DNA from: Malacoraja senta
Lineage: Eukaryota
Direction of reading: 5' to 3'
DNA: 64,000 nucleotides
Assembly (NCBI GenBank): GCA_038087875.1
Contig: CM075990.1
Coordinates: 17,362,001 to 17,426,000 of the forward strand
Part shown: piece after piece, positions 14,053-64,000 of the stretch
How the letters are laid out: the number at the start of each line of letters is the position of its first letter
Numbering within the stretch: the first letter of the stretch is position 1
Notes under the pieces: generated by a model
What the model was told of the DNA's origin: nothing
Databases searched by the model: none
The model's input: the letters and a program-made list of their open reading frames with translations, nothing else
Made by a program: the position numbers and the translations under genes

Positions 14053-14322
14053 AAAACATCACCTATCCATGTTCTCCACAGATGCTGCCTGACCCGCTGA
14101 GTTACTCCAGCACTCTGTGAAACGTCACCTATTCATGTTCTCCAGAGATGTTGCCTGACCCACTGAGTTACTCCAGCACTCTGTGAAACGTCACCTATCT
14201 ATGTTCTCCACAGATGCTGCCTGACCCACTGTTACTCCAACACTCTGTGAAATGTCACCTATCCATGTTCTCCACAGATGCTGCCTGACCCACTGAGTTA
14301 CTCCAGCATTTTGTGTCTATCT
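14053..14322 (+). repeat. Tandem array, 4 x about 66 bp, of the Penelope terminal sequence
   Basis: Units start at 14053, 14119, 14185 and 14249; same junction (ccagcactctgt|gaaacgtc) as the 5065 array. Confidence 0.95.
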
Positions 14323-14858
14323 TAGATAGATATTCATTCGGATTTGAAAAAGAATTGGATAAATCTGAATATTTCTTGCCATGGAGCCCACTGGCCATGG
14401 TTCATTATCTGCATCTGGAATGTCCGTGACATAGAATGTAGAACAGAGAACATTACAGGCCCTCCACCCACAATGTTTCTGCTGAACACAATGCCATGAT
14501 CCATATCTCTCCATTCCCTGCATATCCTTGTCTCTATCTAAAAGCCTCGTAAAGAGTGAGTCGTAGAATAATGCAGCCTATGATGGGCCTGTTTCCAAAC
14601 TGGTGGAAACCCATGGGCCCTCCTTGCCCACTACACTGACCCACACATCCCATTACACAAGTCCCAGCGGCCTGCCTGCCTGCCTCCACCAACCCTGCCA
14701 GCACATTCCAGGCTCTCAGCACCCTCTGTGAAAATTCTTTCCTCACACATCTCCTTTACATGTGGCCTCTGTCACCTTTGAACCATGTCTTCTAGTCTGT
14801 GATTTTTCACCCCCTGGGATAAGTCTTCTGAAGCTCCACCCTATCTATGGCTCTCATA

Positions 14859-15499
14859 TGTTAGCATTCATAGCAAAAGGATTTGAGTATAGAAGCAGGG
14901 AGGTTCTACTGCAGTTGTACAGGGTCTTGGTGAGACCACACCTGGAGTATTGCGTACAGTTTTGGTCTCCTAATCTGAGGAAAGACATTCTTGCCATAGA
15001 GGGAGTACAGAGAAGGTTCACCAGACTGATTCCTGGGATGTCAGGACTTTCATATGAAGAAAGACTGGATAGACTCGGCTTGTACTCACTAGAATTTAGA
15101 AGATTGAGGGGGGGTCTTATAGAAACTTACAAAATTCTTAAGGGGTTGGACAGGCTAGATGCAGGAAGATTGTTCCCGATGTTGGGGAAGTCCAGAACAA
15201 GGGGTCACAGTTTAAGGATAAAGGAGAAATCTTTTAGGACTGAGATGAGAAAAACATTTTTTACACAGAGAGTGGTGAATCTCTGGAATTCTCTGCCACA
15301 GAATGTAGTTGAGGCCAGTTCATTGGCTATATTTAAGAGGGAGTTAGATGTGGCCCTTGTGGCTAAAGGGATCAGGGTGTATGGAGAGAAAGCCAGTACA
15401 GGATACTGAGTTGGATGATCAGCCATGATCATATTGAATGGCGGTGCAGGCTCGAAGGGCCGAATGGCCTACTCCTGCACCTATTTTCTATGTTTCTAT
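14859..15499 (+). mobile_element. Young CR1 (HER1-like) LINE, 5'-truncated, with open ORF2 C-terminus
   Basis: LYRVLVRPHLEYCVQFWSP...FFTQRVVNLWNSLP...GY* uninterrupted; 3' UTR ggctcgaagggccgaatggcctactcctgcacc and (ttctatgt) tail. It sits inside an older antisense CR1 remnant (about 14430-14858 and 15500-15580). Confidence 0.92.
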
Positions 15500-19000: not shown

Positions 19001-19698
19001 ATACAGCACAGAAACAAACCCTTTGGCCCACCTTATTCCTGCTGACCAAGTTGACATATTGGGCTAGTCCTATTTGCCTGCATTTGGCCCAGAGCCCTCT
19101 GAACCGGTCCTATCCATAGATATCTCTGTAAATGCTTTTCAAAAGTTGTAAAATATTATAATTCCATTCTGATCACCATTAGACTTTTGCCCATGTTACA
19201 ACAGTGCAGGAAACTGAATTGAGAAGGCAGGCTTTTGAAGCTATAAAGATCATCACTTCTGAGGAATTTTCTCATTTTTCAAATGTTTTTATTGCAGATT
19301 TTACCACCTATTACCAATCTGCAGCTCCACAGTTCAGGGAAGGATATGGAAAGTAAAATGTTTGAGGTTCGGGAGCAGAGCATAGAAATATTATATAAAT
19401 AGATGGTTTAAGTGGCCTTTTAATTTGTTTGGCAAAGCCAAAATGCAGGGAATGGAGGGATATGGCTCACATGCAGATGGAGGAGGTTAATTTAATTTGG
19501 CATTGTGTTTGGACTGACATTGTGGGCCGAAGGGCCTATTCCTGTGCTGTACTGTTCTATATTCTAAAAGATTATGTTGGTAATTAGGAGGTACCAATCT
19601 ATCAACACTCATCATACCATTCTTGGTCGATCTCCATGTTGTAACTAGGAGTGTCTACAAAGAGCAGCACTGGTGGCAAGCATCAATAAAACACACCT

Positions 19699-19852
19699 GT
19701 AGGAAGTAACTGTAGATGCTGGTTTACATAGAAGATAGACACAAAATGCTGGAGTAACTCAACGGAACAGGCAGCATCTCTGGAGAGAAGAAAGGGTCTC
19801 AACCTGAAACATCAATCATTCCTTCTCTCCAGAGATGCTGCTTGTCCCGCTG
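19699..19852. mobile_element. Palindromic Penelope-derived short insertion
   Basis: Inverted terminal halves, flanked by aataaaacacacct (19685-19698) and aataaaacaaacct (19853-19866). Confidence 0.75.
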
Positions 19853-20072
19853 AATAAAACAAACCTTTCAGGTATTTAACTTAAAGTAAAATATTTTTTA
19901 ATCTTTACACAGGAAAGAAATCCTTGTTTGATGACCTGGTATGTGAATGGATGAAGGATGAAGGAGCCTCAAAGAGCTTAAGCACAAAGCAAAGCATTGT
20001 AGAAACACAGAGGGAAGAACTCCGGGAGAGAACCACCTCGACGAAAGCAACGCTGTGAAGCAGACCCGAGCC

Positions 20073-23000
20073 ATGGACTCGTTAAAGAACAGAGGTGCAG
20101 CTAAAACAAGAAAAATGCAGGGACATTCTAAAGCGGTGGATGGTTTTAGTGATACGTCAAGTGCAGGGAGCTTTTTGGATGAAGCAGATAGAGAAGTAAG
20201 TAGTCTTACAGAGCGTGCTTTTAAGAGCTTGTGTGTTGTAGAAGAAGCTATGTGTAGTGAGTTTGGGGCGCACAGTTCACCATCAGTGGCCAATGTGAAC
20301 CAGGCTGCCCCAGGGCCAGGCGGGAAGAAGCATTCTGCGGGAGAATTGAAAAACTGTAAGATGTCGCCAAAACTAATCAAGAAACGAGCAAAGGAGTTGC
20401 CCGAGACATTCCAGGAATCCGCGGGACAGTATTCTGTTGGAGGTGAGAAAGGGGACTTGGGAAATGGCTACCTGGTTGAAACCAAGGAGCAGAAGGCAAA
20501 GGGTTCTTCTCTGCCCAGAGATGTTGATCACAACAAGAGGGATTTCACAGGAACCGACGCGATCAATGCAAAAGCAGCTTCAGGCGTTCACCCTGAGCCA
20601 GCAGGAGAAGATGGTGTCAAAGACATCACGCAGTTCGATGTCTCATCCATCATCAACTTGCACCGAGAGAAGTCGAGCTTTTCTGCCGCTTGCCAGGAGA
20701 GCTATTGGGTAAATAAAAACCATCTCCCTCAGGCGAAAGGCAGCAAAACCAATATTTTAGGGTATCTGAAAGCCTCACAGTGTCGCAAAGCCACTGACTT
20801 GAAGAATCTTAACCCCACTGGTAAAAAGTTAGACAAGGCCCTTTCTGAGAAGGTCAGCAGAGTGAAGAAGGCTGACACAGCGAGCAGCTTCCTCCACAGT
20901 GAATGCAGTGCATTCAAATCCTGGCGCGATCACAGTAAGTCTCTGTCTGAAGAGGATAATCCGCCTGAAACCCACTACCCCACCAGCCTTCAGTCCAATG
21001 TTCATTTGCAGGGATCTGATGAAGATGTCATTGTTCAGATACAGGCCCCTTCTTTGGTGCAAGTAAAGTCTCCAAACAAAGTCATAGCTAGCGTGATGCA
21101 GAATCCAGGGAACCGCTCTCCCTGCAACAAAGATGATGCACATCTTCATGCATCTGTACCTGAAGAAAATCACTACATTGTCAAAGAAAGTCAAGATCCA
21201 GGTGAACATTTGCAGGGGGCTAAATGTGAAGAGGGCGGTGGTGGGACAGTGGAAAACGGAGTTGAGGAGAAAGGCTTCCAGCTGTGGAGAAACTCAAGGT
21301 TCCCGCTACATAAAAAGCAAATGGAGGCAGAGTTAGTGAGTGAGGAGGTCCCTGCCACAAGATGTCCACCAGTAGCTGAAGCTGCAACATCTGATGCAGC
21401 GATTCCTCAGGAGGCCACCTCTCTGTGCATCTCCAAGCTCCTCACGCCCAACATGGTGCCCAATGTCAATGGAATAGAAACGTCCAAAAACCAGCCAGTC
21501 ATAGTGACTCCTCCCCTCCTCATCCAGCCCGCGGCCAACCAGAGTGATGAGATTAAAGGGGACAACCAGTCACAGTTGGGCTACAGATGCAAGGCGTCAA
21601 GTCTGTTGTACAACTTGAAGGACGTGAGGAAGAGGGTGAAGTCCACCTACTCAACAGCAGGGGCACCACAAAACATCGCCGAGCCTGCAAGGGACAAGTA
21701 TGTTTTCCAGAACATACATCAAACTAGTGCAAGGACTTCTTCTGCTCCTGTCAGGCTACGAGTCAGGGGGAACTGTGCGACGGACGCCAATGGCCAGGGG
21801 AAACTGGACACGATGCCCCATGTTGACGGTACAAGACCCACCGCTGCCCGCCTCAAAGCTGTTGAGATACCTCAGGCTGAGTTAGACCCGTGGAAGGATG
21901 ATGACTATCTGAACCTACGGTCGCCACAGACGGTGAGAGAAGCCGGCGGCTATCCTCGGTGGAGGACGAGGAGCTCAAGACCACAGTCTGCAATGACGTC
22001 GTTGGAGGTCCATGCGGGCAAATGTCGGGACAGAAGGAGCTCCCAGCAGCTGAATAACCCCAATGCAAAGGACAAGGCAGATCTCCCAGTCAAAGCTTTC
22101 CAGTCTGCGAGGAACAGCCCAGAGGGAGTGACAATTGCACAGGAAAAAGAAGAGCTGCAGCAGAATATATTGCATGTTGGCAGAAAGCCAGAGTGTGAGT
22201 TAGTCAGTCACCAACAGCAAGATGTGCGGACACGTGAAAGTCAGACCAGAAAGCAGGAGGGATTGTTGATGCCACAGAGAGTGGAGGATGGAGGTTCCTC
22301 AAGCATGGACCGGTGTGTGCCCAGTCACCAGGGACCTTGCCATCCTGCAGGAGAAGGCAGAACTAGACTCGATGTCAAGTCATCCGGTCAGTCCTACATC
22401 GACTTGGGTAACAGCTACACTCAGGGTCCTGAGCAAATGAATGACTTGAAGGAACAGAGCACTGGGTGTAATGCTGATGCTTTGAATGGTCGCCCTGCAG
22501 TTGAGAACGACAAGAGTTGTGAGAAGATTGAGCTGCAGTATTACGCACTGAGTGATCCAACCATAAACTCGGAGAGGGGAGGGGAGAAACAAAACGCACC
22601 TCTGGTGTTTCAAAGTCATTCCCAACAGGTAACGTCAAGGGGTCTACCGGAGACTAGAACAATGGACAGTGCTTCTGTGGGCTTCTGTGAAGAAAAGTTC
22701 GATAGCATTTTTTCCAAGCAGCAAGAACGCGGGCCAGGAAGTAGCGTCCCGACTTCACCGAGACTTGGTTTATTTAAAGTCACAGACAATTCACCAATAG
22801 TCCCCACGGTAACTAAGCCCACAAAGCTCCTTCTCCCAAAAGGCGCAGGCGAGAATGCTGGCATCAACACTTTGAAAGAAAGACCAACCATGTTTACACC
22901 AAATGAGATGCGCGAAGAAGGTAAACGCGACTCAGGTGAGGTGTCGTTGGCCAGTTCAGTCACTCCCAATGCAAGGCCGGAGTCAACCTGCAGCATGGAC

Positions 23001-23804
23001 TCGAGAGCAGCAGGAAAACCGCCAGTGGTTCCCCCAAAGTCCGAGAAAGCTTTGCGTCGGGCCAAAAAGCTGGCGACCAGGAGGAAACGGACGGAGAACA
23101 AGCAGGACAAGCAGAGTGGTGGTGGTACAGATACTGACATTGCCCTGTCCAACATGCCAGTGTGCGCCCCAAGTGAGCCCACCTCACCACTGCCCAGCGT
23201 TTGCCCGTCAACCCCACACCCACTCAACTCATGCGGTTCCCCAGCCATCGCCGACACCCCGGCAGTAACCAGCACCCTGCCCTTCACATCTGCTCCTTCG
23301 CTTCCATTAAGTCAGCGAAAATTACTTCAAGATCCTGAATCTGGCCAATACTTTGTTGTAGATATCCCCATCCAAGTCCAGAGAAAGACTTTGTTTGACC
23401 CAGAAACTGGGAATTATTTCCAGGTGTCCATCCCCTCGGCCGGTCGAAACACCACACTAGATTTCTTAAACACTTCCTACGTGTTGTATCCCGGTTTCCC
23501 GTCCTTGCCGCTGTTGTCCACGGTTAGACCTCCCTCCCAAATGTCGGCACCGGCCGTTCTGCTGGACCCACACAAAGAGGAAGGGCCTTTCAACGTGCGG
23601 ACTAACTTTGATTTGGGATACACGGAGGAGCAAGAAAACCAGCCGTATATTGAGACGTTTTATGATCCTTACACTGGGAGCAGGGCGGGGAGTGAAAAGG
23701 AGATTTGGTGCAGTCCAATGAGCAGTCAAACGCAACCAGAAGACCATGACCTGGAATTAATTTTTATGGGGGATCTGGAAGATATTGCCATGGAAAATAA
23801 TTAG
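20073..23804 (+). CDS. C10orf71: Cardiac-enriched FHL2-interacting protein (CEFIP) orthologue, single coding exon, 1243 aa (1229 aa from ATG 20115)
   Basis: Uninterrupted 3.7-kb ORF with blocks I recognise from C10orf71: DGFSDTSSAGSFLDEADREVSSLTERAFKSLC, FLHSECSAFKSW, ISKLLTP, KASSLLYNLKDVRKRVKSTYS, KPPVVPPKSEKALRRAKKLA, KLLQDPESGQYFVVD...FDPETG (DUF4585-like) and DLEDIAME. Kozak-like gccATGg at 20073, in-frame stop at 19959, candidate acceptor ctttacacag at 19912, and DRGX is the neighbour as in human. Confidence 0.93.
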   Translation: MDSLKNRGAAKTRKMQGHSKAVDGFSDTSSAGSFLDEADREVSSLTERAFKSLCVVEEAMCSEFGAHSSPSVANVNQAAPGPGGKKHSAGELKNCKMSPKLIKKRAKELPETFQESAGQYSVGGEKGDLGNGYLVETKEQKAKGSSLPRDVDHNKRDFTGTDAINAKAASGVHPEPAGEDGVKDITQFDVSSIINLHREKSSFSAACQESYWVNKNHLPQAKGSKTNILGYLKASQCRKATDLKNLNPTGKKLDKALSEKVSRVKKADTASSFLHSECSAFKSWRDHSKSLSEEDNPPETHYPTSLQSNVHLQGSDEDVIVQIQAPSLVQVKSPNKVIASVMQNPGNRSPCNKDDAHLHASVPEENHYIVKESQDPGEHLQGAKCEEGGGGTVENGVEEKGFQLWRNSRFPLHKKQMEAELVSEEVPATRCPPVAEAATSDAAIPQEATSLCISKLLTPNMVPNVNGIETSKNQPVIVTPPLLIQPAANQSDEIKGDNQSQLGYRCKASSLLYNLKDVRKRVKSTYSTAGAPQNIAEPARDKYVFQNIHQTSARTSSAPVRLRVRGNCATDANGQGKLDTMPHVDGTRPTAARLKAVEIPQAELDPWKDDDYLNLRSPQTVREAGGYPRWRTRSSRPQSAMTSLEVHAGKCRDRRSSQQLNNPNAKDKADLPVKAFQSARNSPEGVTIAQEKEELQQNILHVGRKPECELVSHQQQDVRTRESQTRKQEGLLMPQRVEDGGSSSMDRCVPSHQGPCHPAGEGRTRLDVKSSGQSYIDLGNSYTQGPEQMNDLKEQSTGCNADALNGRPAVENDKSCEKIELQYYALSDPTINSERGGEKQNAPLVFQSHSQQVTSRGLPETRTMDSASVGFCEEKFDSIFSKQQERGPGSSVPTSPRLGLFKVTDNSPIVPTVTKPTKLLLPKGAGENAGINTLKERPTMFTPNEMREEGKRDSGEVSLASSVTPNARPESTCSMDSRAAGKPPVVPPKSEKALRRAKKLATRRKRTENKQDKQSGGGTDTDIALSNMPVCAPSEPTSPLPSVCPSTPHPLNSCGSPAIADTPAVTSTLPFTSAPSLPLSQRKLLQDPESGQYFVVDIPIQVQRKTLFDPETGNYFQVSIPSAGRNTTLDFLNTSYVLYPGFPSLPLLSTVRPPSQMSAPAVLLDPHKEEGPFNVRTNFDLGYTEEQENQPYIETFYDPYTGSRAGSEKEIWCSPMSSQTQPEDHDLELIFMGDLEDIAMENN

Positions 23805-25482: not shown

Positions 25483-27428
25483 CTATATGCTTCTACCTCT
25501 ATGCCTCTATGCCACTGAGAAAGGTTCCAGCATCCCATCCCACATATAATGTTTACCTCGTCACATCCAGACAAGCCAGCTTAAACTGGGTTTCAGAGTA
25601 ACATTAGTTGAAATATCATCATTGAGCCATACCACATGGACACAGGCCCTTCAGCCCGTCTTGTCCATATTCCAGACTCGTCCCATTTGCCTGCATTTGA
25701 CCCATATCCCTCGAAACCCTTTCTATCCATATATCTGTCCACTGAACAGCTGGCAACTAAGGTACCTTGAGCAAAAAAAAACTGCTGGAGGAAGTCAGCG
25801 GGTCAGGTAGCATCTGGGGAAGGAATGGACAGACAACATTTCAGGTCAGGACCCTCCTTCAGACTGAAGTACCTCTGTGGATCTCTAATTCCCCCTCAGA
25901 AAACCAATATGTAAAGTTCTTACATAGGAAGTAGTTTGACTTCCTAAAGCATGTATCATGAAAATGCGTTTAAGATGGGACTGCAGATGCTGGAAAATCA
26001 AAGGTAGACAGAAATGCTGGAGAAACTCAGCGGGTGAGGCAGCATCTATGGAGCGAAGGAAATAGGCAACGTTTAGGGTCGAGACCCTTCTTCAGACTGA
26101 CAATGACAATATCATGACAATGCAATGCTTTATACAACCACACAGACTCCATAATTGCTATCAGGATAATTAGCTTCAAATACACCACAGAAAGTCTGTA
26201 AAACCCTTATCCCACTATTTGAAAATCCCCATGGTTTGACATCTGGTTCACCTGCGTTCTGCTTCCTGCCCTGCCTTTAGCCTTCTGAATAGACAATAGG
26301 TGCAGGAGTAGGCCATTCGGCCCTTCAAGCTAGCACCGCCATTCATTGTGATCATGGCAGATCATCCACATTCTGAAGTTCCTAATGCTTGCCTTTCAAA
26401 GTTCATTGTTCTATCACGTAGCATCGAAAAGCAAGTGAATTAAAAGAGTGTTGGAGAATTAATAGTATGATTCAATCCTGACAATAGATTAATAGGCAAT
26501 AGACAATAGATGCAGGAGTAGGCCATTCGGCCCTTCGAGCCAGCACCGCATTTCAATGTGATCATGGCTGATCACCCACAATCAGTACCCCGTTCCTGCC
26601 GTCTCTCCATATCCCTTAACCCCGCTATCCCTAAGAGCTCTATCTAACTCTGACCTCGGCTACTGTCAGTGTGGAGCTTGCACGTTCTCCTTGTCACCAC
26701 GTGGGTTGCCTCCATGTTCCTCCGGTTTCCTCCCACATCTCAAAGACGTGCAGGTTTGTTGGTTAATTGGCCTCTGTAAAGTGTGTAGTGAGTGGATGAG
26801 AAAGCACGATAATATAGAACATGTGAACGGGTGATCGATGATCAGCGTGGAGTCGGTGGGCAGAAGGGTCTGTTTCCATACTGAGTCTTAATGATTGGGC
26901 AGCTGACTGCCATCTATTGAGGCATCTTTCCAATTCATGGAATAGTTTACAACTCGCTGCATTGTCCTGCTTGTGGAGCCAGGGTGGTGCCAACACCACT
27001 GGCAGAAAACCATCCTGGTCGCCTTGGTGTGGCAATGACTGGCCACTCAGGGAGCAGGGACTCGAGGCAAGTCCAGAGCTATGAGGGCTCCTTAGGGCTG
27101 GAGGAACCTTCAGACCATGTTGAACGGGAAGGTAAGAACTTGAAATTGGATGGAAAGATGAGCTGGGAGCCATGGGCAACAGAGAAATGCCATTGAGTGA
27201 AAATAAGGTAGTGTGGTGTGAACAATGTTCTCTTGGATCAGGCACTAGAGGTTGCTGTGTCCTGTAAAACTGCAAAGAGAAAGCTAACATTTTAAGAAGT
27301 GTTGTAGATTCCAAATATTCCACTAGGACAATAAAGGAATCTGAATCTGAATCTGAATCTGAGGATTGTTTCTTAATATTTGTCAGTAAAGGGCATGATT
27401 GGAATTATATGCAGCGTGAAATTTGCAA

Positions 27429-27645
27429 GATAGACACAAAATGCTGGAGTAACTCAGCGGGACAGGCAGCATCTCTGGATAGAAGGAATGGGCGACGTTT
27501 CAGATCCTTCAGATCTGAAGAAGGGTCTTGATCCGAAACAACAGTTATTCCTTCTATTTAGAGATGCTGCCTTTCCTGTTCAATTACTCCAGCATTTTGT
27601 GTCTATCTTCGATGTAAACTTGCATCTGCAGTTCCTTCCTACATA
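27429..27645. mobile_element. Palindromic Penelope-derived short insertion with 12-bp TSD
   Basis: Inverted halves; tgaaatttgcaa at 27417-27428 and 27646-27657. Confidence 0.85.
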
Positions 27646-29519
27646 TGAAATTTGCAAAGCCAGCCATGTTGTTGAAAGGCAATTTGCCCTGAGTCAATTA
27701 ATTCAGTGATTATTGTCACACGTACCTAGGTACAGTGAAATGCTTGACATACAACCCGGTAAGGTCATACAACAGACCTCACCTACAGTAGGTAGTACAC
27801 AAGTGTCGCCACATGTCCGTCATCGACAAAGTTACAAGAGTAACAGTAAGCCTCCAGTGCAGAAGTCCTCACACATTCTCTCACCAACACAAGCTGAGAT
27901 GGTGTTGACGCATGTTCATGGAGGGTCATTTATTGGTGAGTTGACGCAGTGGGCTGAAGCAACGGGGAATGTTACAGTTTCTACAAATCTATTTTTGATA
28001 CCATTTTTGAAATGCATTTTGGTAAAAATTCAAGTGTGAGAGGGCATAACTTTAAGGACCAAAGTTTAAAGGAGAAGTGCGGGGCAAATGGCCTTTCAAC
28101 AATCCTCAAGTAACACCAAGGATGGTGAGTACCAGGAATGTGCTTCCAGATGTGGTGGTGGAGGCATGTACAATAGAGGCATCTACAAGACGTTTGGATA
28201 GGCACATGGATATGGAGGGATACGGTCGTAGATAAATGGTAATGGCATCATGTACAGCACATATATTATGGGCCGAAAGGCCTGTTCCTGTGCTGCACTG
28301 TTCTATGTTCTAACATCTAACATAGATCCAGTAGTGCGTGCTTTGTACTGACCATTAACAGCCAGCCTGGATTTCACAAGATCACTCATATTTATGCTGC
28401 AGAAGAGCTTTGGACCACAGTTAGGATGCAAGCTGAGAATGCAGCCACTTAGATTCCTCCGACCCATATCGCACCCACAGAACACGGTTCTTAATGTTCT
28501 AAATGCTTCTTAAACGCACAAATATTCTGTCGCATACAGGCAATGAGTTCCACATGTTTCTCAAAAGCCCTTTCTTCCGCTGACTAACATAAATACAGGT
28601 CTCCTAGTGTTGACCTCTCTGCCAAGGGAAGTGTGCCCTTCCCGCTGAACCTCCTAAACATCCCATAATTATAAACACCTTTATGAAGAATTCACTCTGC
28701 CTCCTATGAACTGAGGAAAATGATCCGAGTCTTGCCAGCTTCCCCTGAAACCATGATTCTCCCTCAACCTCTATTACCTTTCAATTTCCTGCTGAAAGTA
28801 GACATACAGTTTGCGTCCAACCTTGACTAGTTCCAGACCTGACCAGCTCCCGACATCTCTGTAAATGAGCCTCATTCAAAACCCAGTTCCTGAACCAGCC
28901 ACAAGCCCTTAGCTTTGTCAAATCTGTGGATTTAGTGAGACAATAAATCCCTAGGACCCATTTGTCTACAATCCAGAAAGGTCTAGTTATTGTCTTCCAA
29001 AGTCCTACAGAACCTGGAATCATGCCACTCTGTAGGAAGGTAGCACCTTGTCCATGCTGATCATGTCAGCATTTTTGGTTGGTCCCATTTAACTGCATTT
29101 GGCCCATGGTCTAAACTTTTCCATTACATATGTCTATAGAAAAACTCTTAATAGTCTCCCCTTCCTCGGCTTCCTCTGCCCCCTCAATCCAGATACAGAC
29201 TATCTTCTATATGTATACACAACATGCTGGAGTAACTCAGTGGGACTGGCAGCATCTCTGGAGAGAAGGAATGGGCGACGTTTCGGGTCGAGACCCTTCT
29301 TCAGATTGCCTTCTGAGCGAACAGGTTTCACTGAGGTCCCTTTTAAATCTCTCTCCTTTACCTTAAGCCTGTGAGCATTCACTATATCAATCCCCCTCAT
29401 TATTCTATGTATTGCGTGTCAGCTTTTGTCTGCTGTTGTAGGCTTTTTGCTCACTGCGCTTAATATTGAACACCAGGAACACTCACTTCACATAATCATT
29501 GATAGGATTTCAGAACTGC

Positions 29520-31196: not shown

Positions 31197-31595
31197 ATAG
31201 ACACAAAAAGCTGGAGTAACTCAGCGGGTCAGACAGCATCTCTGGAGAAAAGGAATAGGTGACGTTTCGGGTCGAGACCTTTCTTCAGACTGAGAATTGG
31301 GGGAAAGGGAAACGAGAGATATAGACGGTGATGTAGAGAGATAGAGAACAAATGATAGATATGCAAAAAAAGTTATGATGATAAAGGAAACAGCCCATTG
31401 GTAGCTGCGAGCTAGGTGAAAATGAGTTAGTGACAATGAGACTGAACAAGACGTCTTTGAAGCTGGTACGACTTGGGTGTGGGAATGATGGAGAGAGGGG
31501 GATGCAAGGGTTACTAGAAGTTAGAGAAATCAATATTCATTCCACTGGGTTGTAAACTGCCCAAGCAACATACGAGGTTCCTCCAATCTATGTTT
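31197..31595 (-). mobile_element. Penelope-like 3' end (GIY-YIG tail plus pLTR)
   Basis: Minus strand LGSLQPSGMNIDFSNF*, then a pLTR with ctgaagaaaggtctcgacccgaaacgtcacc; uninterrupted counterpart of 1880-2560. Confidence 0.8.
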
Positions 31596-34560: not shown

Positions 34561-35022
34561 TTGGAGTTGCTCAATTATAGCGGAGCAGTGACCGTGAATG
34601 GTACACTTGAGATGCTCTGACCTCTGGGCCAGTGTGATGTCATTATAAAATTGGTCTGTTAGTGCAAACTGGTGCACAAACACAATGTTTTTTTAAGAAC
34701 GAGCATGTTATGCCATTGTGAATGTGCGGGCCGAGCTCGTTATTACCTTGCAAAGAAGCATGAACTCACATGGATTAATGCAGCAATCATAAAACCACTC
34801 AGTCGACAGGACTGGCAGCAGACGGATGCAACTAGCAATGGATATTCTCACAAGTGGAGGAAGCACATTCATTCAGCGGCAATCTGATTGAATGTTGAAC
34901 AGAAACTCACCAAGGCTTCACAAGCAGATCTTCCCAATCCGGAATTCTCCATCAAATGGATTGGCCAGACCATCCAGCTTGCAGGAGGCATCACCTTGAC
35001 CAGGGCCCACCATCAATATTGT

Positions 35023-35242
35023 GTAGGAAGGAACTGCAGATGCTGGTTTGAACTGAAGATAGGCACAAAAAGCTGGAGTAACTCAGTGGGACAGACAGCA
35101 TCTCTGGAGAGAAGGAATGGGTGACGTTTCAGGTCGAGAGCTATCTTTAGTCTGAAGAAGGGTCTCGCCCGAAACGCCTCCCATTCCTTCTCTCCACAGA
35201 AGCTGCCTGTCCAGCTGAGTTAATCCAGCTTTTTGTGTCTAT
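35023..35242. mobile_element. Palindromic Penelope-derived short insertion with 16-bp TSD
   Basis: ccaccatcaatattgt at 35007-35022 and 35243-35258; inverted halves around tctgaagaagggtctcgcccgaaacg. Confidence 0.85.
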
Positions 35243-36159
35243 CCACCATCAATATTGTTTCCTTTTATTTTGACAGTGGGTCAAAATCCGAGAACTGTCT
35301 TGTTTTAAAATACTGCAGGAACCTATAATCTCTGTCATCTTCCCAAGGACATTGAGGACAGGTGATACGTGGTGGCCATGCCAGTAAACACAATGTGCAA
35401 GGATGAAGTGACCTATTAATGTTAAGAATGGATGGATCCTCTGAGTCTGAAATCATAAAGCCATGACTGGGCAGAGATTAGTTCAAGTGCCCACAGATGA
35501 ACAAATGGGAACAATTCATGGGAATTGTTCAATCATTTTATTTTACTTAGAACAATAAAGGAATACAATAGGAATACTTTATTGTCACATGTGACTAGGT
35601 ACAGTGAGATTCTTTGTTTGCATGCCCAATGTATACAAACGTATAAAGAGGCCATTCAGCCCATTGAGTATAGCTCAAGTCCCAACACAGCAATCACATC
35701 AGTCCCATTTACCTGCCGTCCGAGTAATTTACAATGGCCAATTAAGCACCCAGCGGGTCTTTAGGGTGCAGGACGAGATCTAAACACCTGGAAGAAACCT
35801 GCACGATCACCGTGGGAACGTAAACCATAAAAAATAACATGTTGCACATAGTTCATAATAATTTAAAATGTTGACTATTTTAATGCCTGTCAAAGTCGAG
35901 AGAGTTAAAGAGCAGGAGGATCCTAGTTTTGAACAGGCACACCTCACAGACAAAGACCAAGGAATGGAGAGAACGGGAGACTGGGTGTATGATGGTAAAA
36001 TCTCCCGAGGAACCAGCGTTGCATAAAGTTAATGGTGACTGGAGAAGAAATGCCGAACTAAGTAGAGTCAGAGCCCCGCATCACTCTGTGACTTCATAAC
36101 ACCATGGGTGGAGCAGAAACAAAATTATTTCCCACTGACTCCATTTGCACTTCACCCTG

Positions 36160-39171: not shown

Positions 39172-39390
39172 CACAAAGTACTGGAGTAACTCAGCGGGTC
39201 AGGCAGCATCTGTGGAGAACATGGATAGGTGACGTTTCACAGAGTGCTGGAGTAACTCAGCAGGTCAGGCAGCATCTGTGGAGAACATGGATAGGTGACG
39301 TTTCACAGAGTGCTGGAGTAACTTCGTGGGTCAGGCAGCATCTCTGGAGAACATGGATATGTGACGTTTCGGGTCAGGACCGTTCTTCAG
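39172..39390 (-). repeat. Tandem array, 3 x 66 bp, of the Penelope terminal sequence with a hammerhead-like core at its 5' end
   Basis: Same unit and junction as the 5065 and 14053 arrays, reverse-complemented; lies about 40 bp from the DRGX acceptor. Confidence 0.9.
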
Positions 39391-52625: not shown

Positions 52626-53831
52626 CTGACAAGTCTGAAGTAGGGTCTCGACCTGAAACGTCTCCTATTCCTTCACTCCAGTGATGCTGCCTGACCCACT
52701 GAGTTACTCCAGCATTTTATGTCTGTCTTCTGTACAAACCAGCATTTGCAGTTCCTTGTTACACATTTAGTTCCACTTATATTGCTAGCTTTACACACAT
52801 CCACCTGGCCCACTGAGTTCCTCCAGCGCTCTGTGTGTTGCTGAAGATCCCAGCATCTGCAGTTCCTGTGTCTCTACTTTTTGCTCAATGATTAGATCTG
52901 TTAGGATGGGGGGGGGGGAAAGCAAGAAAAAAACATAGATTGCGAGAAAAAAACAACTTTACAATAATCAAACGCCAGAGATGACGACTGTCGCAATAAG
53001 GGGGACGTTTAGGGAACATCACGGAGACGGTGTACACCAAATACTTCACTCGGGAATTGCTGTTTGACCCGCCGGGTTACTCCAGCAACTGCAGATGCTG
53101 GAAATCTAAATGACTTGTTGGAGATGGTCAGCGTGTCAGGCCGCAGCTGTGGGAAGAGAAACAGAGTGTGTGTTTCATGAAACGGCATTTTTAAACTTTG
53201 GTCTTAACCTGTGTGATTTGCCTTTTGATCAACGTATATGGACAGTCCCATAACTCAGAGACTCGGTGGCCCGGGCGTTAGAGAGCATCGCCTGTCTCAG
53301 GACGTGTGGACCAGAGGCCGGGCGCTGTGCCCCGTTTAAGGATGTCCAAACAGGTATATATAACCCGCAAGTGTTTCTCCTCTCACACAGGGCGGAGATT
53401 GCAGATCACGACGTAACTTCTGCACAGAATCCACTGCAGGCGGCTTTCTGTTCTGGGCGCTCCAGTTTTTTTTAAATTTGAATCAAAAATATTTATTCAA
53501 ATATTAATAGTATTTACAATAAAATAAAACAAAGCAGAACCCACCACCATAGTACAAGACAAACAATTATACTAAGTGAACAACTATATTGCAATGCTTG
53601 TCCCCCGCGGTGCCCAGCGGTCCCGGAAATCCCCCCAGGGCGCCCGTGGACAACGTGTAGTCCCTCTCTAACCCCACCCGGGAAAGGGGCAAAGGGCGTT
53701 CCAGGTTTTACCTTGTCGCATGTACAGAGATACAATGAGAAGCTTTGTTTCGCATGCTTGTCGATCAAATCAGGCAATACTATACTTGACTATACAATGC
53801 TATACCTTGTTTCCCTTTCCCCTGACTCTCA

Positions 53832-53863
53832 GTCTGAAGAAGGGTCTCGACCCGAAACGTCAC
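53832..53863 (+). ncRNA. Minimal type I hammerhead ribozyme-like motif in a Penelope terminus (best-preserved copy)
   Basis: GU CUGAAGA A GGGU CUCG ACCC GAAA CG UC AC: intact core, 4-bp stem II, palindromic ACGU in place of stem III; stem I only 2 bp. Confidence 0.6.
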
Positions 53864-54026
53864 CTATTCCTTCTCTCCAGAGATGCTGCCTGTCCCGCTA
53901 AGTTACTCCAGCATGTTGTGTCTATCTTCGGTTTAACCCAGCATCTGCAGTTCCTTCCTTCACATAAATACAACCAGGCCAAAGACAAGAGGTAGAGCGA
54001 AGCGAAAGATACCAGAGTGCAGAATA

Positions 54027-55579: not shown

Positions 55580-56164
55580 AGATACATAGAAACATAGAAA
55601 ATAGGTGCAGGAGTAGACCATTCGGCCCTTCGAGCCTGTATCGCCATTCAATATGATCATGGCTGATCATCCAACTCAGTATCCCGTACCTGCCTTCTCT
55701 CCATACCCCCTGATCCCCTTAGCCACAAGGGCCACATCTAACTCCCTCTTAAATATAGCCAATGAACTGGCCTCAACTACCCTCTGTGGCAGAGAGTTCC
55801 AGAGATTCACCACTCTCTGTGTGAAAAAGTTTTTCCTCATCTCGGTCTTAAAGGATTTCCCCCTTATCCTTAAGCTGTGACCCCTTGTCCTGGACTTCCC
55901 CAACATCGGGAACAATCTTCCTGCATCTAGCCTGTCCAACCCCATAAGAATTTTGTACGTTTCTATAAGATCCCCTCTCAATCTCCTAAATTCTAGCGAG
56001 TATAAGCCAAGTCTATCCAGTCTTTCTTCATATGAAAGTCCTGCCATCCCAGGAATCAGTCTGGTGAACCTTCTCTGCACTCCCTCTATGGCTATAATGT
56101 CCTTCCTCAGATTTGGAGGCCAAAACTGTACGCAATACTCCAGGTGTGGTCTCACCAAGACCCT
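55580..56164 (-). mobile_element. Young CR1 (HER1-like) LINE, 5'-truncated, with 7-bp TSD
   Basis: ORF 55676-56158 is nearly identical to the 14859 copy; gaaacat duplicated at 55573-55579 and 56165-56171; inserted in an older + strand CR1 (about 55270-56425). Confidence 0.92.
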
Positions 56165-56705
56165 GAAACATTTAATAGGAAGCCAAGGAGCAACATTTTC
56201 ATACAGAGGGTGGGTGTATATCGAGTGATCTGCCAGAGGAGGTAGTTGAGGCCAGTATTATAACATCATTTAAAAGGCATTTGACCAGGAATATGGATTG
56301 GAAATGTTTAGAGGTATATGAGGCAAACACGGGCAAATGGGACTGGCATAGATTTAGCATCTTGGTTGGCACGGACAAGTTGGGCTGAAGGGTCTGTGTT
56401 TGTGCTGTGTGGATTTATGCCTCTAGACTATATGAAGTTTAGATTGTGTTGTAGTGTAGAAAACACAACAAACTCCCCAAACCAATAACGTGACAATGCA
56501 CAGACCTTTAGTGATGTTGACGAGATATAACTGGTGCGGTAGAGAGGTACCTGCTATAATGTGGATTCACACACCCATGAGAGCATCTATCTCAACATCT
56601 ATCCAAAGGTACCACCTCCAACACTATCCAATTTGAACAGATTAACCCAGTTAAGTTGGTCTTATTATCATTTGGACAACAATTTGAACTCAGGTTTTCA
56701 TCTGG

Positions 56706-58492
56706 AGTCAAGTCAAGTCAAGTCACATTTATTTATATAGCACATCTAAAAAACAACTCTCGTTGGCCAAAGTGCTTTACATTTGTTATAAGAATAGCAC
56801 AAACAAAACAAACTACATACATATATACATATAGCCCTCACTCAGAGGACATCAGGAAAGGCTTGGGAGTATAGATAGGTCTTTAGTCTTGACTTAAAAG
56901 AGTCGATGGAGGGGGCGGTTCTGATGGGAAAGGGGATGCTGTTCCACAGTCATGGGGCTGCAACCGCAAAGGCGCGGTCGCCCCTGAGCTTATGCCTAGA
57001 CCGTGGGATATTCAGCAACCCCAAGTCGGCCGATCTGAGGGGCCTGGAGGTGGAGTGGTGGGTGAGAAGACTTTTTATGTAGGTGGGGGCAAGCCCATTG
57101 AGGGCTTTGTAGACATGGAGGAGGATCTTGAAGTTTATACGGAACCGCACAGGGAGCCAGTGGAGAGAGGCCAGGATCGGGGTGATGTGGTCCCTTTTTC
57201 GGGTGCCCGTCAGGAGTCTCGCTGCGGCGTTTTGGACCAGTTGCAGGCGGGACAGGGAAGATTGGCTGATGCCAGTGTAAAGGGAGTTGCAGTAATCTAG
57301 GTGGGAGGAGATGAATGTGTGGATGATCTTTTCCAGGTCATCAAACTGGAGGAATTGTTTTATTTTAGCTATCGTCTGAAGCTGAAAGAAGCTAGCTTTT
57401 ACCATGGCATTGACTTGTTTGTCAAATTTCAGTGCTGAGTCAAATATCACACCAAGGTTTTTGACATGAGGTTTGAGTAGTGGGGTAAGGCTTCCAAGGC
57501 TGCCTGCTATCATTTTGATTGAGTCCGAGGGGCCGAGAAGGATGACGTCAGACATACTCTCGTTTAGTTGGAGGAAGTTCTGGGCCATCCAACACTTTAT
57601 ATCCTCGAGGCAGTGGGTAAGGTTAAACAGATTTGATTGGTTTTGGGGCTTCAGGGGGAGATAGAGTTGTGTATCATCTGCGTAGCAATGGAAGGAAATG
57701 CCGTGCCTTTCAATGACTTGGCCTAAGGGGAGCATATACAGGGAGAAGAGAATGGGGCCAAGGATGGAACCTTGTGGAACCCCACAGCACAGATTAGCTG
57801 GGGAGGAGAATGAGTTGCCTATGTTAGCTGAGAAACTCCTACCTTTGAGGTAGGAGATGAACCAGCTCAGGGCAGTGCCATCAATACCAACCCCATACCG
57901 GAGATGGTCAATTAGGATGGTGTGGTCGACAGTATTAAATGCTGCGCTGAGGTCAAGAAGGAGCAGGATTGCACAGTCGCCGGAGTCAACGGTGAGCAGT
58001 AGGTCATTGTGTACCTTCAACAAGGCAGACTCTGTGCTATGGTGAGCCCTGAAACCTGATTGGAAAGTTTCCAAGATAGCGTTTTGGTGAAGGTAAGGCA
58101 TAAGTTGACTTAAAATTACCTTTTCAAGGGCTTTTGAGAGGAAAGGCAGTTTAGAAATGGGCCTGTAGTTGCTTGGCAAGGTGGGGTCGAGGTTGGGTTT
58201 TTTCAGGAGTGGTTGGACCACCGCATGCTTGAAGCAGGTAGGTACAGTGCCAGTGGCCAGAGAGCTGTTGAAGATGGCGAGGATGCTGGGTCCAGCTGTT
58301 GTAATGATGTCCTTTAGGAGGGCAGAGGGGACAGTGTCGAGGGGGCAGGTAGTAGGTTTCATGGTGGTGATCAGTTTTACAAGGGAGGGTAGAGTAACGG
58401 GTTGGAAATGGTCTAATTTTGAAGAGCAGACCAATGAGACAGCCAGGTCACGGGTGGGAGGGGAAATATTCGTTCTTATATTCTTTACCTTG
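56706..58492 (-). mobile_element. L2-clade LINE, 5'-truncated, with RT domain open
   Basis: NYRPISKLPFLSK, FQSGFRAHHSTE, LLDLSAAFNTVDH, GVPQGSILGP, YADDTQLY, HITPILASLHWLPV. One nonsense codon at 56950-56952, after which the frame continues LWNSIP...AFPDVL* (56842); (ttgac)n tail. Confidence 0.92.
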
Positions 58493-58568
58493 CTTGTGGA
58501 GGGGGAGATGAATATTCTGTCTTGTGGCACAAAGACCACGGAGGTACAGTGACAATGCATAGAACTGA

Positions 58569-60022
58569 CATAAACATAGAAACATAGAAAATAGGTGCAG
58601 GAGTAGGCCATTCGGCCCTTCGAGCCTGCACCGCCATTCGATATGATCATGGCTGATCATCCAACTCAGTATCCCATCCCTGCCTTCTCTCCATACCCCC
58701 TGATCCCTTTAGCCACAAGGGCCACATCTAACCCTCTCTTAAATATAGCCAATGAACTGGCAGAGGATTCCACAGATTCACCACTCTCTGTGTAAAAAAT
58801 GATTTTCTCATCTCGGTCCTAAAAGACTTCCCTCTTATCCTTAAACTGACCCCTAGTTCTGGACTTCCCCAACATCGGGAATAATCTTCCTGCATCTAGC
58901 CTGTCCAACCCCTTAAGAATTTTGTAAGTTTCTATAAGATCCCCCCTCAATCTTCTAAATTCTAGCGAGTACAAGCCAAGTCTATCCAGTCTTTCATCAT
59001 ATGAAAGTCCTGCCATCCCAGGAATCAGTCTGGTGAACCTTCTCTGCACTCCCTCTATGGCAATAATATCTTTCCTCAGATTAGGAGACCAAAACTGTAC
59101 GCAATACTCCAGGTGTGGTCTCACCAAGACCCTGTACAACTGCAGTAGAATCTCCCTGCTCTTATACTCAAATCCTTTTGCTATGAATGCTAAGTACCAT
59201 TTGCTTTCTTCACTGCCTGCTGCACCTGCATGCCTACTTTCAATGATTGGTGTACCATGACACCCAGGTCTCGTTGCATCTCCCCTTTTCCTAATCGGCC
59301 ACCATTCAGATAATAGTCTACTTTCCTGTTTTTGCCACCAAAGTGGATAACCTCACATTTATCCACATTATACTGCATCTGCCATGCATTTGCCCGCTCA
59401 CCCAACCTATCCAAGTCACCTTGCAGCCTCCTAGCATCCTCCTCACAGCTAACACTGCCCCCCAGCTTCGTGTCATCCGCAAACTTGGAGATGTTGCATT
59501 CAATTCCCTCATCCAAATCATTAATATATCTTGTAAATAGCTGGGGTCCCAGCACTGAGCCTTGCGGTACCCCACTAGTCACTGCCTGCCATTGTGAAAA
59601 GGACCCGTTTACTCCTACTCTTTGCTTCCTGTCTGCCAGCCAGTTCTCTATCCACATCAATACTGAACCCCCAATACCGTGTGCTTTAAGTTTGCATACT
59701 AATCTCTTATGTGGGACCTTGTCGAAAGCCTTCTGAAAGTCCAGATATAACACATCCACTGGTTCTCCCTTATCCACCCTACTAGTTACATCCTCGAAAA
59801 ATTCTATAAGATTCGTCAGACATGATTTACCTTTCATAAATCCATGCTGACTTTGTCCAATGAATTCACCACTTTCCAAATGTGCTGCTATCCCATCTTT
59901 AATAAATGACTCCAGAATTTCCCCCACCACCGATGTTAGACTAACTGGTCTGTAATTCCCCGTTTTCTCTCTCCCTCCCTTTTTAAAAAGTGGGGTTACA
60001 TTAGCTACCCTCCAGTCCTCAG
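58569..60022 (-). mobile_element. Young CR1 (HER1-like) LINE, 5'-truncated, RT domain present, frameshifted downstream
   Basis: PEDWRVANVTPLFKKG, NYRPVSLTS, YLDFQKAFDKVPH, GVPQGSVLGP, FADDTKLGG; indels near 59193, 58848 and 58760; (ttctatgt) tail. Confidence 0.93.
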
Positions 60023-61630
60023 GAGGTGAAGAAGGTGAAAGTGTACCTTGTATACAGAACTGAATAACACCGAACCTTGGCTTAAAATCCCAGATGCAAA
60101 TTGTCACATGAAGCTAAATCCATGAAGAACGGTTCGGCACATACAAAGCTGCAATTAGAAATGACAGAACAAAAATATGAGATTAAGGTTTTCATCAAAA
60201 GGATATTATCACACAATAATAAATTAGCATATGGTCTTTGACCAAAATGCATTAGCTAAAAAAAACCTGAAAAGATAAGTTATTAATTTAATTAACAGGA
60301 AGATATATTCAACTCATTTTCAACTAAATTGATACCAGATAATAACTTTATAATGATTGTACATCACACTTCACCGAGAGGAAGAAACTGCTCCTAACTT
60401 ATTTATTAGCCAGTAGTCTATTCTGTGCTGAATGAAATGCTGGAGGAGCTTAATGGGTCAGGCCGCATCTGTGGAGGGAATGGCCAGGTGATGGGACCCT
60501 TCTTCAGACACAAAATGTCACCTATCTATTCCATCACAGGTGCTGCGGGACCTGATGATTCACTCCACACCTTGTGTTTCACTTCGGAGTTCAGCATTGT
60601 GTTCTTTGCTGTTCATACGCTCACAAGTTCGATCTATCTTTCCGTCTTAACCCCATTCTCCTGCCTTTTTCCCTTAACCCCTGACACCCATACTAATTTT
60701 GAATCAACCTATCTCTGCCTTAAAAACATCCATTGACTTGGGCTCCATGCTTCTGTTGCACACACATTTCTCTCAGCTTACTTTCAATGTACAATATTAA
60801 CAGCACATTGCACCTGTGTGCTGCCACACCAGGATCCCAGTTTGAGCCTCGTTTTCTCTCTCGGTCAAATTCAAACAACTTTTTAAAATATAAAGTTGGC
60901 CCAATTTTTGCCCTATCACCTTCTCCTTGTTCCTCTCCGGTTGAATGCGCTACCATTCAGAACTGACCCCCATTGATAATTTATTATCAATGATAATTTA
61001 TTTTTGTTTAGTTTATTATTGCCACGTGTACTGAGATACAGTGAAAGGGTTTTGTTTATGTCCTGTCCAGTCGAAGAAAAGACTGTACATGATTACAATC
61101 AAGTTGTCTGCAATATACAGATAAAGGATAAAGGGCACAACATTTAGTGCAAGATAAAATCCAATCAAGTCCAATTAAAGTTATCCCATTTTAGGCAAGT
61201 TTAATGATAATATTTCATTCCTAGTGATACAGTAGCAATCGTATTTTGTTTACTGTTTCACCATAACTCCTGCCAATGAAAGCTTTACCTCATTGATAAA
61301 GATCTCATCTTGGAAGAATAATTAATTGCATCTGTTGTTGCAAAAATCAAATCAAGATTCACAGACAAATTCTCATTTCAATTAGTTCCCTCCAAATACA
61401 GATAATTTCCAAAAGTGCTCCTTTAACAAAAGAAATTAAAGTGTCTTTTCTTTTTTTAAAGAATTTTAAAGTTCCTCCATACAACCTCCCTGTTGTTCTA
61501 AATGATATCCCAAACAGCTCAATTGTCATTTTTAATTTGCAGCAAGGGCAGACTCAAAGGTTTTCTGAAGCAAGGTTTAGAACATAGAGGAGTGCAGCGC
61601 AGGAACAGGTCCACCGGCCCACAATATCTA

Positions 61631-63248
61631 CAGTGGCTTGCAAAAGTATTCATACCCCTTGAACTTTTCCACATTTTGTCACGTTACAACCACAAATGTA
61701 AATGTATTTTATTGGGATTTTATGTGATAGACCAACACAAAGTGGCGCATAATTGTGAAGTGGAAGGAACATGATACATGGTTTTCAAATTTTTTTACAA
61801 ATAAAAAACTGAAAAGTGTCGCATGCAAAAGTATTCAGCCCCCTTTACTCTGATACCCCAAAATAAAATCCAGTGCAACCAATTGCCTTCAGAAGTCACC
61901 TAATTAGTAAATAGAGTCCACTTGTGTGTAATCTAATCTCAGTATAAATACAGCTGTTCTGTGAAGGCCTCAGAGGTTTGTTAGAGAACATTAGTGAACA
62001 AACAGCATCATGAAGCCAAAGGAACACACCAGACAGGTCAGGGATAAAGTTGTGGAGAAGTTTAAAGCAGGGTTAGGTTATACAAAAATATCCCAAGCTT
62101 TGAACATCTCACGGAGCACTGTTCAATCCATCATCCGAAAATGGAAAGAGTATGGCACAACTGCAAACCTACCAAGACATGGCCGTCCACCTAAACTGAC
62201 AGGCCGGGCAAGGAGAGCATTGATCAGAGAAGCAGCCAAGAGGCCCATGGTAACTCTGGAGGAGCTGCAGAGATCCACAGCTCAGGTGGGAGAATCTGTC
62301 CACAGGACAACTATTAGTCGTGCACTCCACAAATCGGACCTTTATGGAAGAGTGGCAAGAAGAAAGCCATTGTTGAAAAAAAGCCATAAGAAGTCCCGTT
62401 TGCAGTTTGCCACAAGCCATGTGGGGGACACAGCAAACATGTGGAGGAAGGTGGTCTGGTCAGATGAGACCAAAATTGAAGTTTTTGGCCTAAATGCAAA
62501 ACGCTATGTGTGGCGGAAAACTAACACTGCACATCACCCTGAACACACCATCCCCACTGTGAAACATGGTGGTGGCAGCATCATGCTGTGGGGATGCTTT
62601 TCTTCAGCAGGGACAGGGAAGCTGGTCAGAGTTGATGGGAAGATGGATGGAGCCAAATACAGGGCAATCTTGGAAGAAAACCTGTTAGAGTCTGCAAAAG
62701 ACTTGAGACTGGGGCGGAGGTTCACCTTCCAGCAGGACAACGACCCTAAACATACAGCCAGAGCTACAATGGAATGGTTTAGATCAAAGCATATTCATGT
62801 GTTAGAATGGCCCAGTCAAAGTCCAGACCTAAATCCAATTGAGAATCTCTGGCAAGACTTGAAAATTGCTGTTCACAGACGCTCTCCATCCAAACTGACT
62901 GAGCTTGAGCTATTTTGCAAAGAAGAATGGGCACAAATTTCAGCTGGTAGAGACACAAAAGCTGGTAGAGACATACCTCAAAAGACTTGCAGCTGTAATT
63001 GCAGCGAAAGGTGGTTCTACAAAGTATTGACTCAGGGGGGCTGAATACTTTTGCACGTGACACTTTTCAGGTTTTTATTTGCAAAAAAATTTGAAAACCA
63101 TGTATCATTTTCCTTCCACTTCACAATTATGCACCACTTTGTGTTGGTCTATCACATAAAATCCCAATAAAATACATTTACGTTTGTGGTTGTAACGTGA
63201 CAAAATGTGGAAAAGTTCAAGGGGTATGAATACTTTTGCAAGCTACTG
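61631..63248 (+). mobile_element. Full-length Tc1-family IR/DR DNA transposon (Passport/Eagle/Glan-like), 1618 bp
   Basis: TA duplication at 61629-61630 and 63249-63250; about 213-bp TIRs starting CAGT with tgcaaaagtattca at both the outer and inner ends; DD34E transposase. Confidence 0.96.
62010..63030 (+). pseudogene. Tc1 DD34E transposase, open except for a C-terminal frameshift
   Basis: GRPPK, WSDETK, QQDNDPKH, SPDLNPIENLW with 34 residues between D and E. The canonical end KLVETYLKRLAAVIAAKGGSTKY* (TGA 63028-63030) lies in a shifted frame after about 62958. Confidence 0.92.
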
Positions 63249-64000
63249 TATGTAGAACATGATGGCAAGTTAAACTAATATGCTCTGCCTGCACATGATC
63301 CATGTCATCCCATCCCCACATATCCATGTGTAGACATCAGGCAGGCATTTGGCCAGCAGTGGGTGAGAGACATTGCCACACCAGTCTTGTTGGTAGTTTG
63401 AAGGAATTAGCTATGAGCAATTCCTTTCACATTTATCCTTAATCGATCATAAAGTTGCATGAAAATGACCCTAAACTCTGACATCAACCCATGCCATGGA
63501 ATACATTAGTTTCTGTGCTGTGTGACTCTATGACTGTGACCTGCCCAACAGCTGAACACAACCACGTTTGACGTTTAAGAATTTTAAAGTTCCTGCATAT
63601 ATCCTCCCTGTTGACCTTTGGTGTAATATGATTGGGACATTTCAGTTTTAGACCTTAGAGAACCTACCGGCAAAAAATAACCACAACAATTTTAAAAAAC
63701 CTTGCCTGAAATGTAACTAAAAACAGAAAATACTGTAGAAAGTTCTGTACTGTAGAATAGAAAACTCAGTGTGTATATAGACACACTGAACTTGTATCTC
63801 CTGTTCTGTATTATGTTCACATATTCTGTTGTGCTGCAGCAAGCAAGAATTTCATTGTCCTATCTGGAACACATGACAATAAAACTCTCTTGACTCTTGA
63901 CACCCTCTGCATGTCAGGCTACTTCAATGTGAGGAGAAACGGAGGTAACATTTCACGACAAACTCCGTTTCACTTCCCACAGACTCGGACAGACTTGCTG

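Follow-up and report, generated by a model that had tools for sequence, protein, structure and literature searches.

The window, the 64,000-nt stretch of Malacoraja senta DNA analysed as a whole, contains a minimal type I hammerhead core at 53834–53861 (+), which we read from the sequence and which fits the consensus in Fig. S3 of PMC4209133. C3–A9 occupies 53834–53840, followed by an extra A (53841), a 4-bp stem II (53842–53845/53850–53853) with the 4-nt loop CUCG, and GAAA (53854–53857). An ACGU palindrome at 53857–53860 replaces helix III, and C17 (53861) completes a GUC triplet with a predicted cut at 53861/53862. Immediately upstream lies a 34-nt remnant of the pyrimidine-rich 3′ UTR of the host element (53800–53833, +), delimited by shared upstream extent and ending in TCAGT. 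The final two bases of this remnant supply the 5′ strand of helix I. Downstream, 53862–53962 (+) is part of a pLTR with the tail of a Penelope-like element (PLE), and it reaches the second of two 3′ end positions (nhmmer match 53829–53962). The original prediction of an intact core at 53832–53863 therefore stands, now with exact limits, as does its caveat that helix I is only 2 bp long. No Rfam hammerhead model matched the window at E up to 5, so the hammerhead call rests on the descriptor and on context.

Matches to this core with up to three mismatches occur ten times in the window, against none in 100 shuffles. The many decayed copies noted earlier are likewise present: 67 matches to the family were found, nine with all core bases and three with the complete motif. 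Two other copies had been described as intact, at 29277–29304 (−) and 44301–44328 (−). Their cores are exact, but their helices I retain one pair and none, respectively, because both copies are truncated just upstream: the first is a stub at 29214–29308 (−) with helix I mostly lost, and the second (44211–44328, −) begins at C3. A claimed variant at 40393–40420 does have the stem GGGU-UUCG-GCCC, but U4 is mutated and the core is broken; it belongs to a stub (40299–40424, −) of the youngest subfamily type, with a UUCG loop and GUU triplet. Upstream of longer copies come the pyrimidine-rich 3′ UTR and then the C-terminus of a GIY-YIG endonuclease, seen in the window at 1907–2078 and near 31590–31512. 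The former lies in a 5′-truncated copy (1874–2556, +) in which the endonuclease end is broken (68–80% identity to the protein of locus L099 by tblastn), followed by a 3′ UTR with an insertion, a decayed hammerhead at ~2463–2489, and the tail. The latter lies in another 5′-truncated copy (31197–31590, −) comprising the last endonuclease codons, the full 3′ UTR, a hammerhead with one stem II change (31261–31288), and the first tail end. An inverted, back-to-back pair of stubs, typical of PLE insertion, occupies 44747–44950, and further inverted pairs lie at 19698–19851, 27427–27649, 35020–35243, 40936–41082, and 43743–43947.

The window also holds features of other kinds. A 1,280-codon open frame at 19962–23804 (+) with a DUF4585 match (E 3e-26) is a large host exon. 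A Tc1/mariner transposase frame of ~345 aa with HTH and DDE_3 (61998–63044, +), flanked by 215-bp repeats at 61629–61843 and 63036–63250, appears nearly intact. Fragments of LINE reverse transcriptase (RT), which we take to be of CR1/L2 type, occur at 56950–58656 (−; RVT_1, E 6e-29), 59190–60113 (−), 14732–15409, and 55676–56257. Two minisatellites are unrelated to the hammerhead motif (6013–6648, 39 bp × 16.5; 49987–50219, 48 bp × 4.9). The Rfam model of the CPEB3 (HDV-like) ribozyme matched at 130–207 (+; 32.8 bits, E 7e-5) and 9435–9498 (+; 29.4 bits, E 1e-3), both below its gathering score of 35. These matches keep P1, P3, and L3 with a degenerate P4 and probably represent the 5′ ends, now decayed, of a different retroelement.

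As predicted, the motif agrees with the published minimal hammerhead consensus of PLEs (PMC4209133). The core bases C3–A9, G12–A14, A15.1, U16.1, and H17 are present, as are the extra base between positions 9 and 10.1, the G10.1–C11.1 pair, and stem II, and the palindromic 15.2/16.2 is ACGU in all six subfamily consensuses, which we derived from 546 copies with a mixture model. Among these consensuses, none of 11 core positions varied, compared with 33 of 101 in the tail, although the Fisher p of 0.03 is soft because the consensuses are related and the K of the mixture model is arbitrary. The middle of the tail was nearly as conserved as the core (7 of 40 positions variable). The extra A, the CG, and the upstream TCAGT were also invariant, and variation fell on three of the four loop positions and on the cut base (C or U). 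Preservation of pairing, as originally claimed, is weakly supported: the three stem changes between consensuses keep their pairs, but each is a one-sided transition to G-U, a kind of change that retains pairing by chance half of the time, and compensatory changes are absent. Two-sided covariation was absent among the six subfamily consensuses of this genome, a test of low power because the subfamilies are close. Covariation is cited as support for the minimal hammerhead in PMC4209133 and stands outside its descriptor. Canonical type I traits (a 6-bp helix I, a closed helix III, and loop 1–loop 2 contacts) are absent from the sequence, and the two pairs of helix I have a pair probability of at most 0.013. 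We infer that the core has been retained through selection on active masters.

To identify the host element, we searched with an RT fragment from locus L060; of 29,523 first-look candidates, 150 were scored, and 20 loci were selected for the longest RT frames. In 19 of these 20, the motif lay behind the RT(-EN) frame on the same strand, mostly ~120 nt past the stop, which places it in the pLTR. Two loci (L099 and L102) contain complete pLTR-ORF-pLTR units, in which the ORF is bracketed by two motifs separated by 3,946 and 3,910 nt, respectively. This linkage to a gene for RT and GIY-YIG endonuclease, together with the complete units, supports the earlier assignment to a PLE. The young elements with long frames bear the UUCG/GUU variant. 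In L062, an RT-EN gene is followed after 186 nt by the exact 28-mer of 53834–53861, and in L067, L069, and L089 such genes are followed by close variants of it. The L099 translation contains DKG, YIDD, a C-X4-C-X2-C linker, and a GIY-YIG domain with CCHH. Its Pfam matches to RVT_1 (E 3.8e-5) and GIY-YIG (E 9e-4) are both below the Pfam cut-off, and its atlas score is 0.98, with HTH_animal, RVT_1, and GIY-YIG clusters. The first ATG lies ~160 nt behind C3, and the ORF has an N-terminal extension of >400 aa without a Pfam match (L099, 6471–7742, −), in a different frame from RT-EN in L099 and L102 and apparently in one frame with it in L092 and L093. The traits of EN+ PLEs are thus present: an RT followed by a C-terminal GIY-YIG with CCHH, the pLTR-ORF-pLTR arrangement, an inverted 5′ copy, and a tail. 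A Cys linker between RT and EN (CX2-5CxxC) marks Neptune and Nematis (PMC8557442). The sequence features, including this linker common to both clades, point to a Neptune/Nematis-type EN+ PLE. At another locus (L091, 1922–5875), a PLE has landed in frame within an L1-like ORF2, creating by chance a 1,318-codon frame that joins an AP endonuclease and two RT parts to GIY-YIG.

The family is extremely abundant. The exact 28-nt core occurs 18,728 times in the genome (control 0), and a descriptor requiring the full set of core bases together with the CG and a 13-base spacer matches 102,633 core-intact places (control 27). A profile built on 16 seed copies gave 282 family matches in 600 kb, sampled as sixty evenly spaced 10-kb stretches of C1–C7, which extrapolates to about 0.9 million copies if the sampled density holds. 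All core bases were present in 70 of 281 sampled copies and the complete motif in 37. The original expectation of a very large ribozyme-bearing PLE family is thereby upheld, since the core-intact places are this numerous and the motif is linked to the RT-EN gene. We considered whether other hammerhead families were present in the window and the 600 kb, but 57 of the 59 descriptor matches there lie within the Penelope-like family and the remaining two are chance-like. A longer-spacer pattern gave 3,495 matches vs. 341 in the control, the first 100 of which were mostly insertion mutants of the PLE family. Two identical core-like strings on C1 (703464–703492 and 736943–736971), with a 14-base spacer and without the usual stem II, may represent a decayed copy that was duplicated or a separate family. 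The family was also found in contigs of presumed RNA runs from other organisms.

In contrast to the original prediction, self-cleavage likely does not set the ends of genomic copies, because copies extend across the cut site and their 5′ ends are concentrated elsewhere. C3 is included in 202 of 349 genomic copies, and only three of 348 begin no more than 2 nt from the cut. The 5′ ends instead accumulate within and just upstream of the core. Among the 202 core-complete copies, 59 have an inverted partner upstream, four a direct copy, and 139 neither; 89 of these 139 end a short distance upstream, most of them no more than about six bases from C3, and 50 continue into the UTR. The 3′ ends cluster at +86 to +104 and at +120 to +128 (the latter being the limit of the model), two positions of the PLE tail ~30 nt apart. 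In the 50 long copies, each position of TCAGT is 88–98% conserved. The pentamer (53829–53833) is invariant although the upstream UTRs differ between subfamilies, and short copies stop inside it. Placed after a pyrimidine tract, it has the appearance of both a 3′ splice site and an initiator. In D. virilis, an intron ends at helix I (PMC4209133), and splicing onto the CAG/T site here would likewise alter helix I. However, there was no splice joint at the CAG/T site among the 15 of 92 joints listed from four contig sets, and no recurrent foreign exon upstream among the best 70 of 139 shared extents, taken longest first. The 5′-end pile-up likely marks either the place where the RNA starts, near TCAGT by our guess, or a point at which the enzyme stalls. 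A single sharp start at the A of TCAGT was rejected, as the ends spread over about six bases. In contigs from four runs, loose ends fell at 53829–53832 among the matches listed, but the presumed RNA runs did not differ from the presumed DNA run in this respect, and contigs cannot display RNA ends. Among the 24 entries listed from these contigs, no 5′ loose end lay at 53862. We also dismissed the idea that the inverted partner supplies a long helix I, which would need a partner starting at the cut site, a rare arrangement.

These observations bear on what the motif does. One reading is that self-cleavage of a two-pLTR dimer releases a unit-length RNA and so fixes where the transposing RNA begins and ends. 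The complete units carry two motifs ~3.9 kb apart, the ACGU palindrome permits a 4-bp helix III, and PMC4209133 proposed this model and reported weak cutting of Schistosoma dimers. Yet a 5′-end peak at the cut is missing, the loose contig ends listed lie upstream of it, and hammerhead mutants of the anole element transpose normally in vitro (PMC11167929). Predicted folding is also strongly unfavourable: in nine of nine contexts the double-hammerhead fold was 16–36 kcal/mol above the cofold minimum, and the probability of stem II in this set was 0.00–0.51. We therefore give this reading little credence. It is even harder to see the copies as a stand-alone SINE or retrozyme family, a reading we consider extremely improbable. 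Most copies are indeed only 95–135 nt long and lack coding sequence, but their upstream extent grades continuously into 3′ UTR, endonuclease, and RT, full-core units are not tandem (a direct copy lies upstream in only four of 202), and the linkage of the motif to the RT-EN gene contradicts it.

A more serious competitor, which we nevertheless regard as the less probable account, is a vestigial hammerhead that never cuts and is retained as a protein-binding site, a promoter, or a splice-site context. Such a vestige would fit a helix I of 2 bp, a predicted best fold in which the purine run pairs with the downstream pyrimidine tract, and a TCAGT as invariant as the core that resembles a splice site or initiator. 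Eight of nine Xenopus dimers show no cleavage, and four of five strands of the motif region fold no better than shuffles. With the predicted hammerhead fold also disfavoured, the motif may be catalytically dead. By contrast, what varies (the loop, N17 as C or U, and wobble pairs) and what is fixed (11 core bases and the CG) obeys the rules of a hammerhead. A 2-bp helix I also occurs in the motifs of D. virilis, Culex, and Oikopleura, and cleavage in vitro was reported for an extended motif from D. virilis (PMC4209133). On balance, we lean towards a motif that could cut under favourable conditions. In the anole PLE, the hammerhead depends on protein and is not needed for insertion in vitro, and the data given in PMC11167929 include no reads ending at its cut site.

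We are fairly confident that the motif is a minimal hammerhead in the pLTR of a Neptune/Nematis-type PLE and that the window copies are 5′-truncated stubs, likely made from uncleaved RNA. In the anole PLE, uncleaved RNA is reverse-transcribed from two internal start sites (PMC11167929). By analogy, the protein of the skate element would nick DNA and prime reverse transcription within the tail. On the upstream pLTR, synthesis would proceed only ~100–135 nt before halting at an RNA 5′ end near TCAGT or stalling at the ribozyme, and such short synthesis would explain the mass of stubs. Cutting would become possible only once a second ACGU completes helix III and protein refolds the RNA. The hammerhead would then act as a slow, conditional ribozyme rather than as the end-forming step, and nearly all genomic copies would be passive.

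A second repeat in the window is built from the substrate half of the motif. Three arrays of a 66-bp unit lie at 5075–5329 (+; 3.9 units of substrate half and tail, within an old decayed copy), 14054–14315 (+; four units), and 39172–39390 (−; three units, with a full core at the head, 39363–39390). All three share one unit, which starts at GAAA and keeps the palindrome and cut site but has neither CUGANGA nor stem II. The exact unit junction occurs 14,759 times in the genome. Across 38 arrays, 84 inner units differed by 1.4% from one window unit. Ribozyme halves were recognisable before 18 of the 38 arrays and differed by 15% from the 53834–53861 copy; an intact core stood in front of eight. 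The arrays sit in register inside old copies, with flanks from different subfamilies and 1–27 junctions per array. Their density was uneven: one array in the 600 kb of evenly spaced samples, five in 200 kb of window neighbours, and 29 in 200 kb at a C1 cluster (2.7–3.4 Mb), where stretches were picked for known matches. A rare junction variant had 76 matches, and all 19 on C1–C6, some of them neighbours, lay within 4.1 Mb of an end, in zones that make up 5.3% of C1–C6 DNA.

The arrays are probably a minisatellite born once by duplication within the tail and spread by homology-directed DNA repair at recombination-rich chromosome ends. Young units behind far older ribozyme halves, flanks of mixed subfamily with the register retained, the crowding of the rare variant near ends, and the excess at the C1 cluster over the evenly spaced samples all agree with this. 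On the other side, a donor locus was not identified, the identical unit on different chromosomes demands an efficient source, and retrozyme multimers are likewise enriched at chromosome ends (bioRxiv 10.64898/2026.07.22.740005). The other route would be a substrate-only retrozyme, in which a head core cuts the following half-sites in cis, the 66-nt monomers circularise, and the PLE RT copies the circles, which use homology to home into old pLTR copies near chromosome ends. The unit keeps exactly the GAAAC-GUC half that is cut, it is young and uniform, and as a circle it folds better than shuffles (z −2.2, 18 of 500), compared with z −1.2 to +0.6 for six ordinary copies. However, an intact core precedes too few arrays, and in eight of eight testable arrays the cis fold was 8–27 kcal/mol above the minimum. 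This scheme accordingly seems to us very unlikely; if true, it would make the arrays a split-ribozyme parasite living on a ribozyme-bearing retroelement. We thus favour DNA repair, with reasonable but incomplete confidence, over rolling-circle reverse transcription of a 66-nt RNA circle. Under either mechanism, the arrays document in-register replacement, thousands of times over, of old dispersed repeats by a young tandem unit close to chromosome ends, and none of the papers listed by a literature search described a comparable case in title or abstract.

As a ribozyme, the motif is ordinary: PLE hammerheads were already known, having been published in 2014 (PMC4209133). It has in common with the minimal hammerheads described there CUGANGA, one extra base before stem II, G10.1–C11.1, GAAA, the palindromic CG at 15.2/16.2, and UH, along with a U-rich upstream region, placement in both pLTRs, and a majority of solitary copies. 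The 4-bp stem II and 4-nt loop are those of the Neptune motif of Acropora digitifera, whereas the fish motifs listed have 5–8 bp in stem II, and most listed motifs have 3–5 bp in helix I, vs. 2 bp here and in the three species named above. Cartilaginous fish are absent from the entries of Table S1 and Fig. S3 of that study that were consulted, and our literature searches listed no description of the motif in cartilaginous fish; the supplements of bioRxiv 10.64898/2026.07.22.740005, which sampled one cartilaginous fish with retrozymes averaging 363 bp, could bear on this point.

The 66-bp arrays are like the non-LTR retrozymes (PMC7229834; bioRxiv 10.64898/2026.07.22.740005) in being pLTR-derived tandems enriched at chromosome ends. 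Unlike them, they lie in register inside older copies, and their unit lacks CUGANGA and stem II, whereas each retrozyme unit carries a complete hammerhead as described in those sources. With Neptune and Nematis (PMC8557442), the skate element shares the order of RT, C-X4-C-X2-C linker, and GIY-YIG with CCHH, as well as partial tandems, an inverted 5′ copy, and an optional tail. It also resembles the anole Poseidon element PAc (PMC11167929), which has a pLTR hammerhead, copies made from uncleaved RNA, and two 3′ end positions ~30 nt apart, ~100–130 nt downstream. In PAc, however, the ORF starts inside the ribozyme, in contrast to the ATG well behind C3 here, and the skate protein differs in its Cys linker and long N-terminal extension. 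The core-intact places counted here exceed the ~9,000 copies reported in X. tropicalis (PMC4209133), although the descriptors differ. With >100,000 such places and ~0.9 million stubs, this genome is a good test bed for the function of PLE hammerheads, and its copy ends argue against end formation by the PLE hammerhead.
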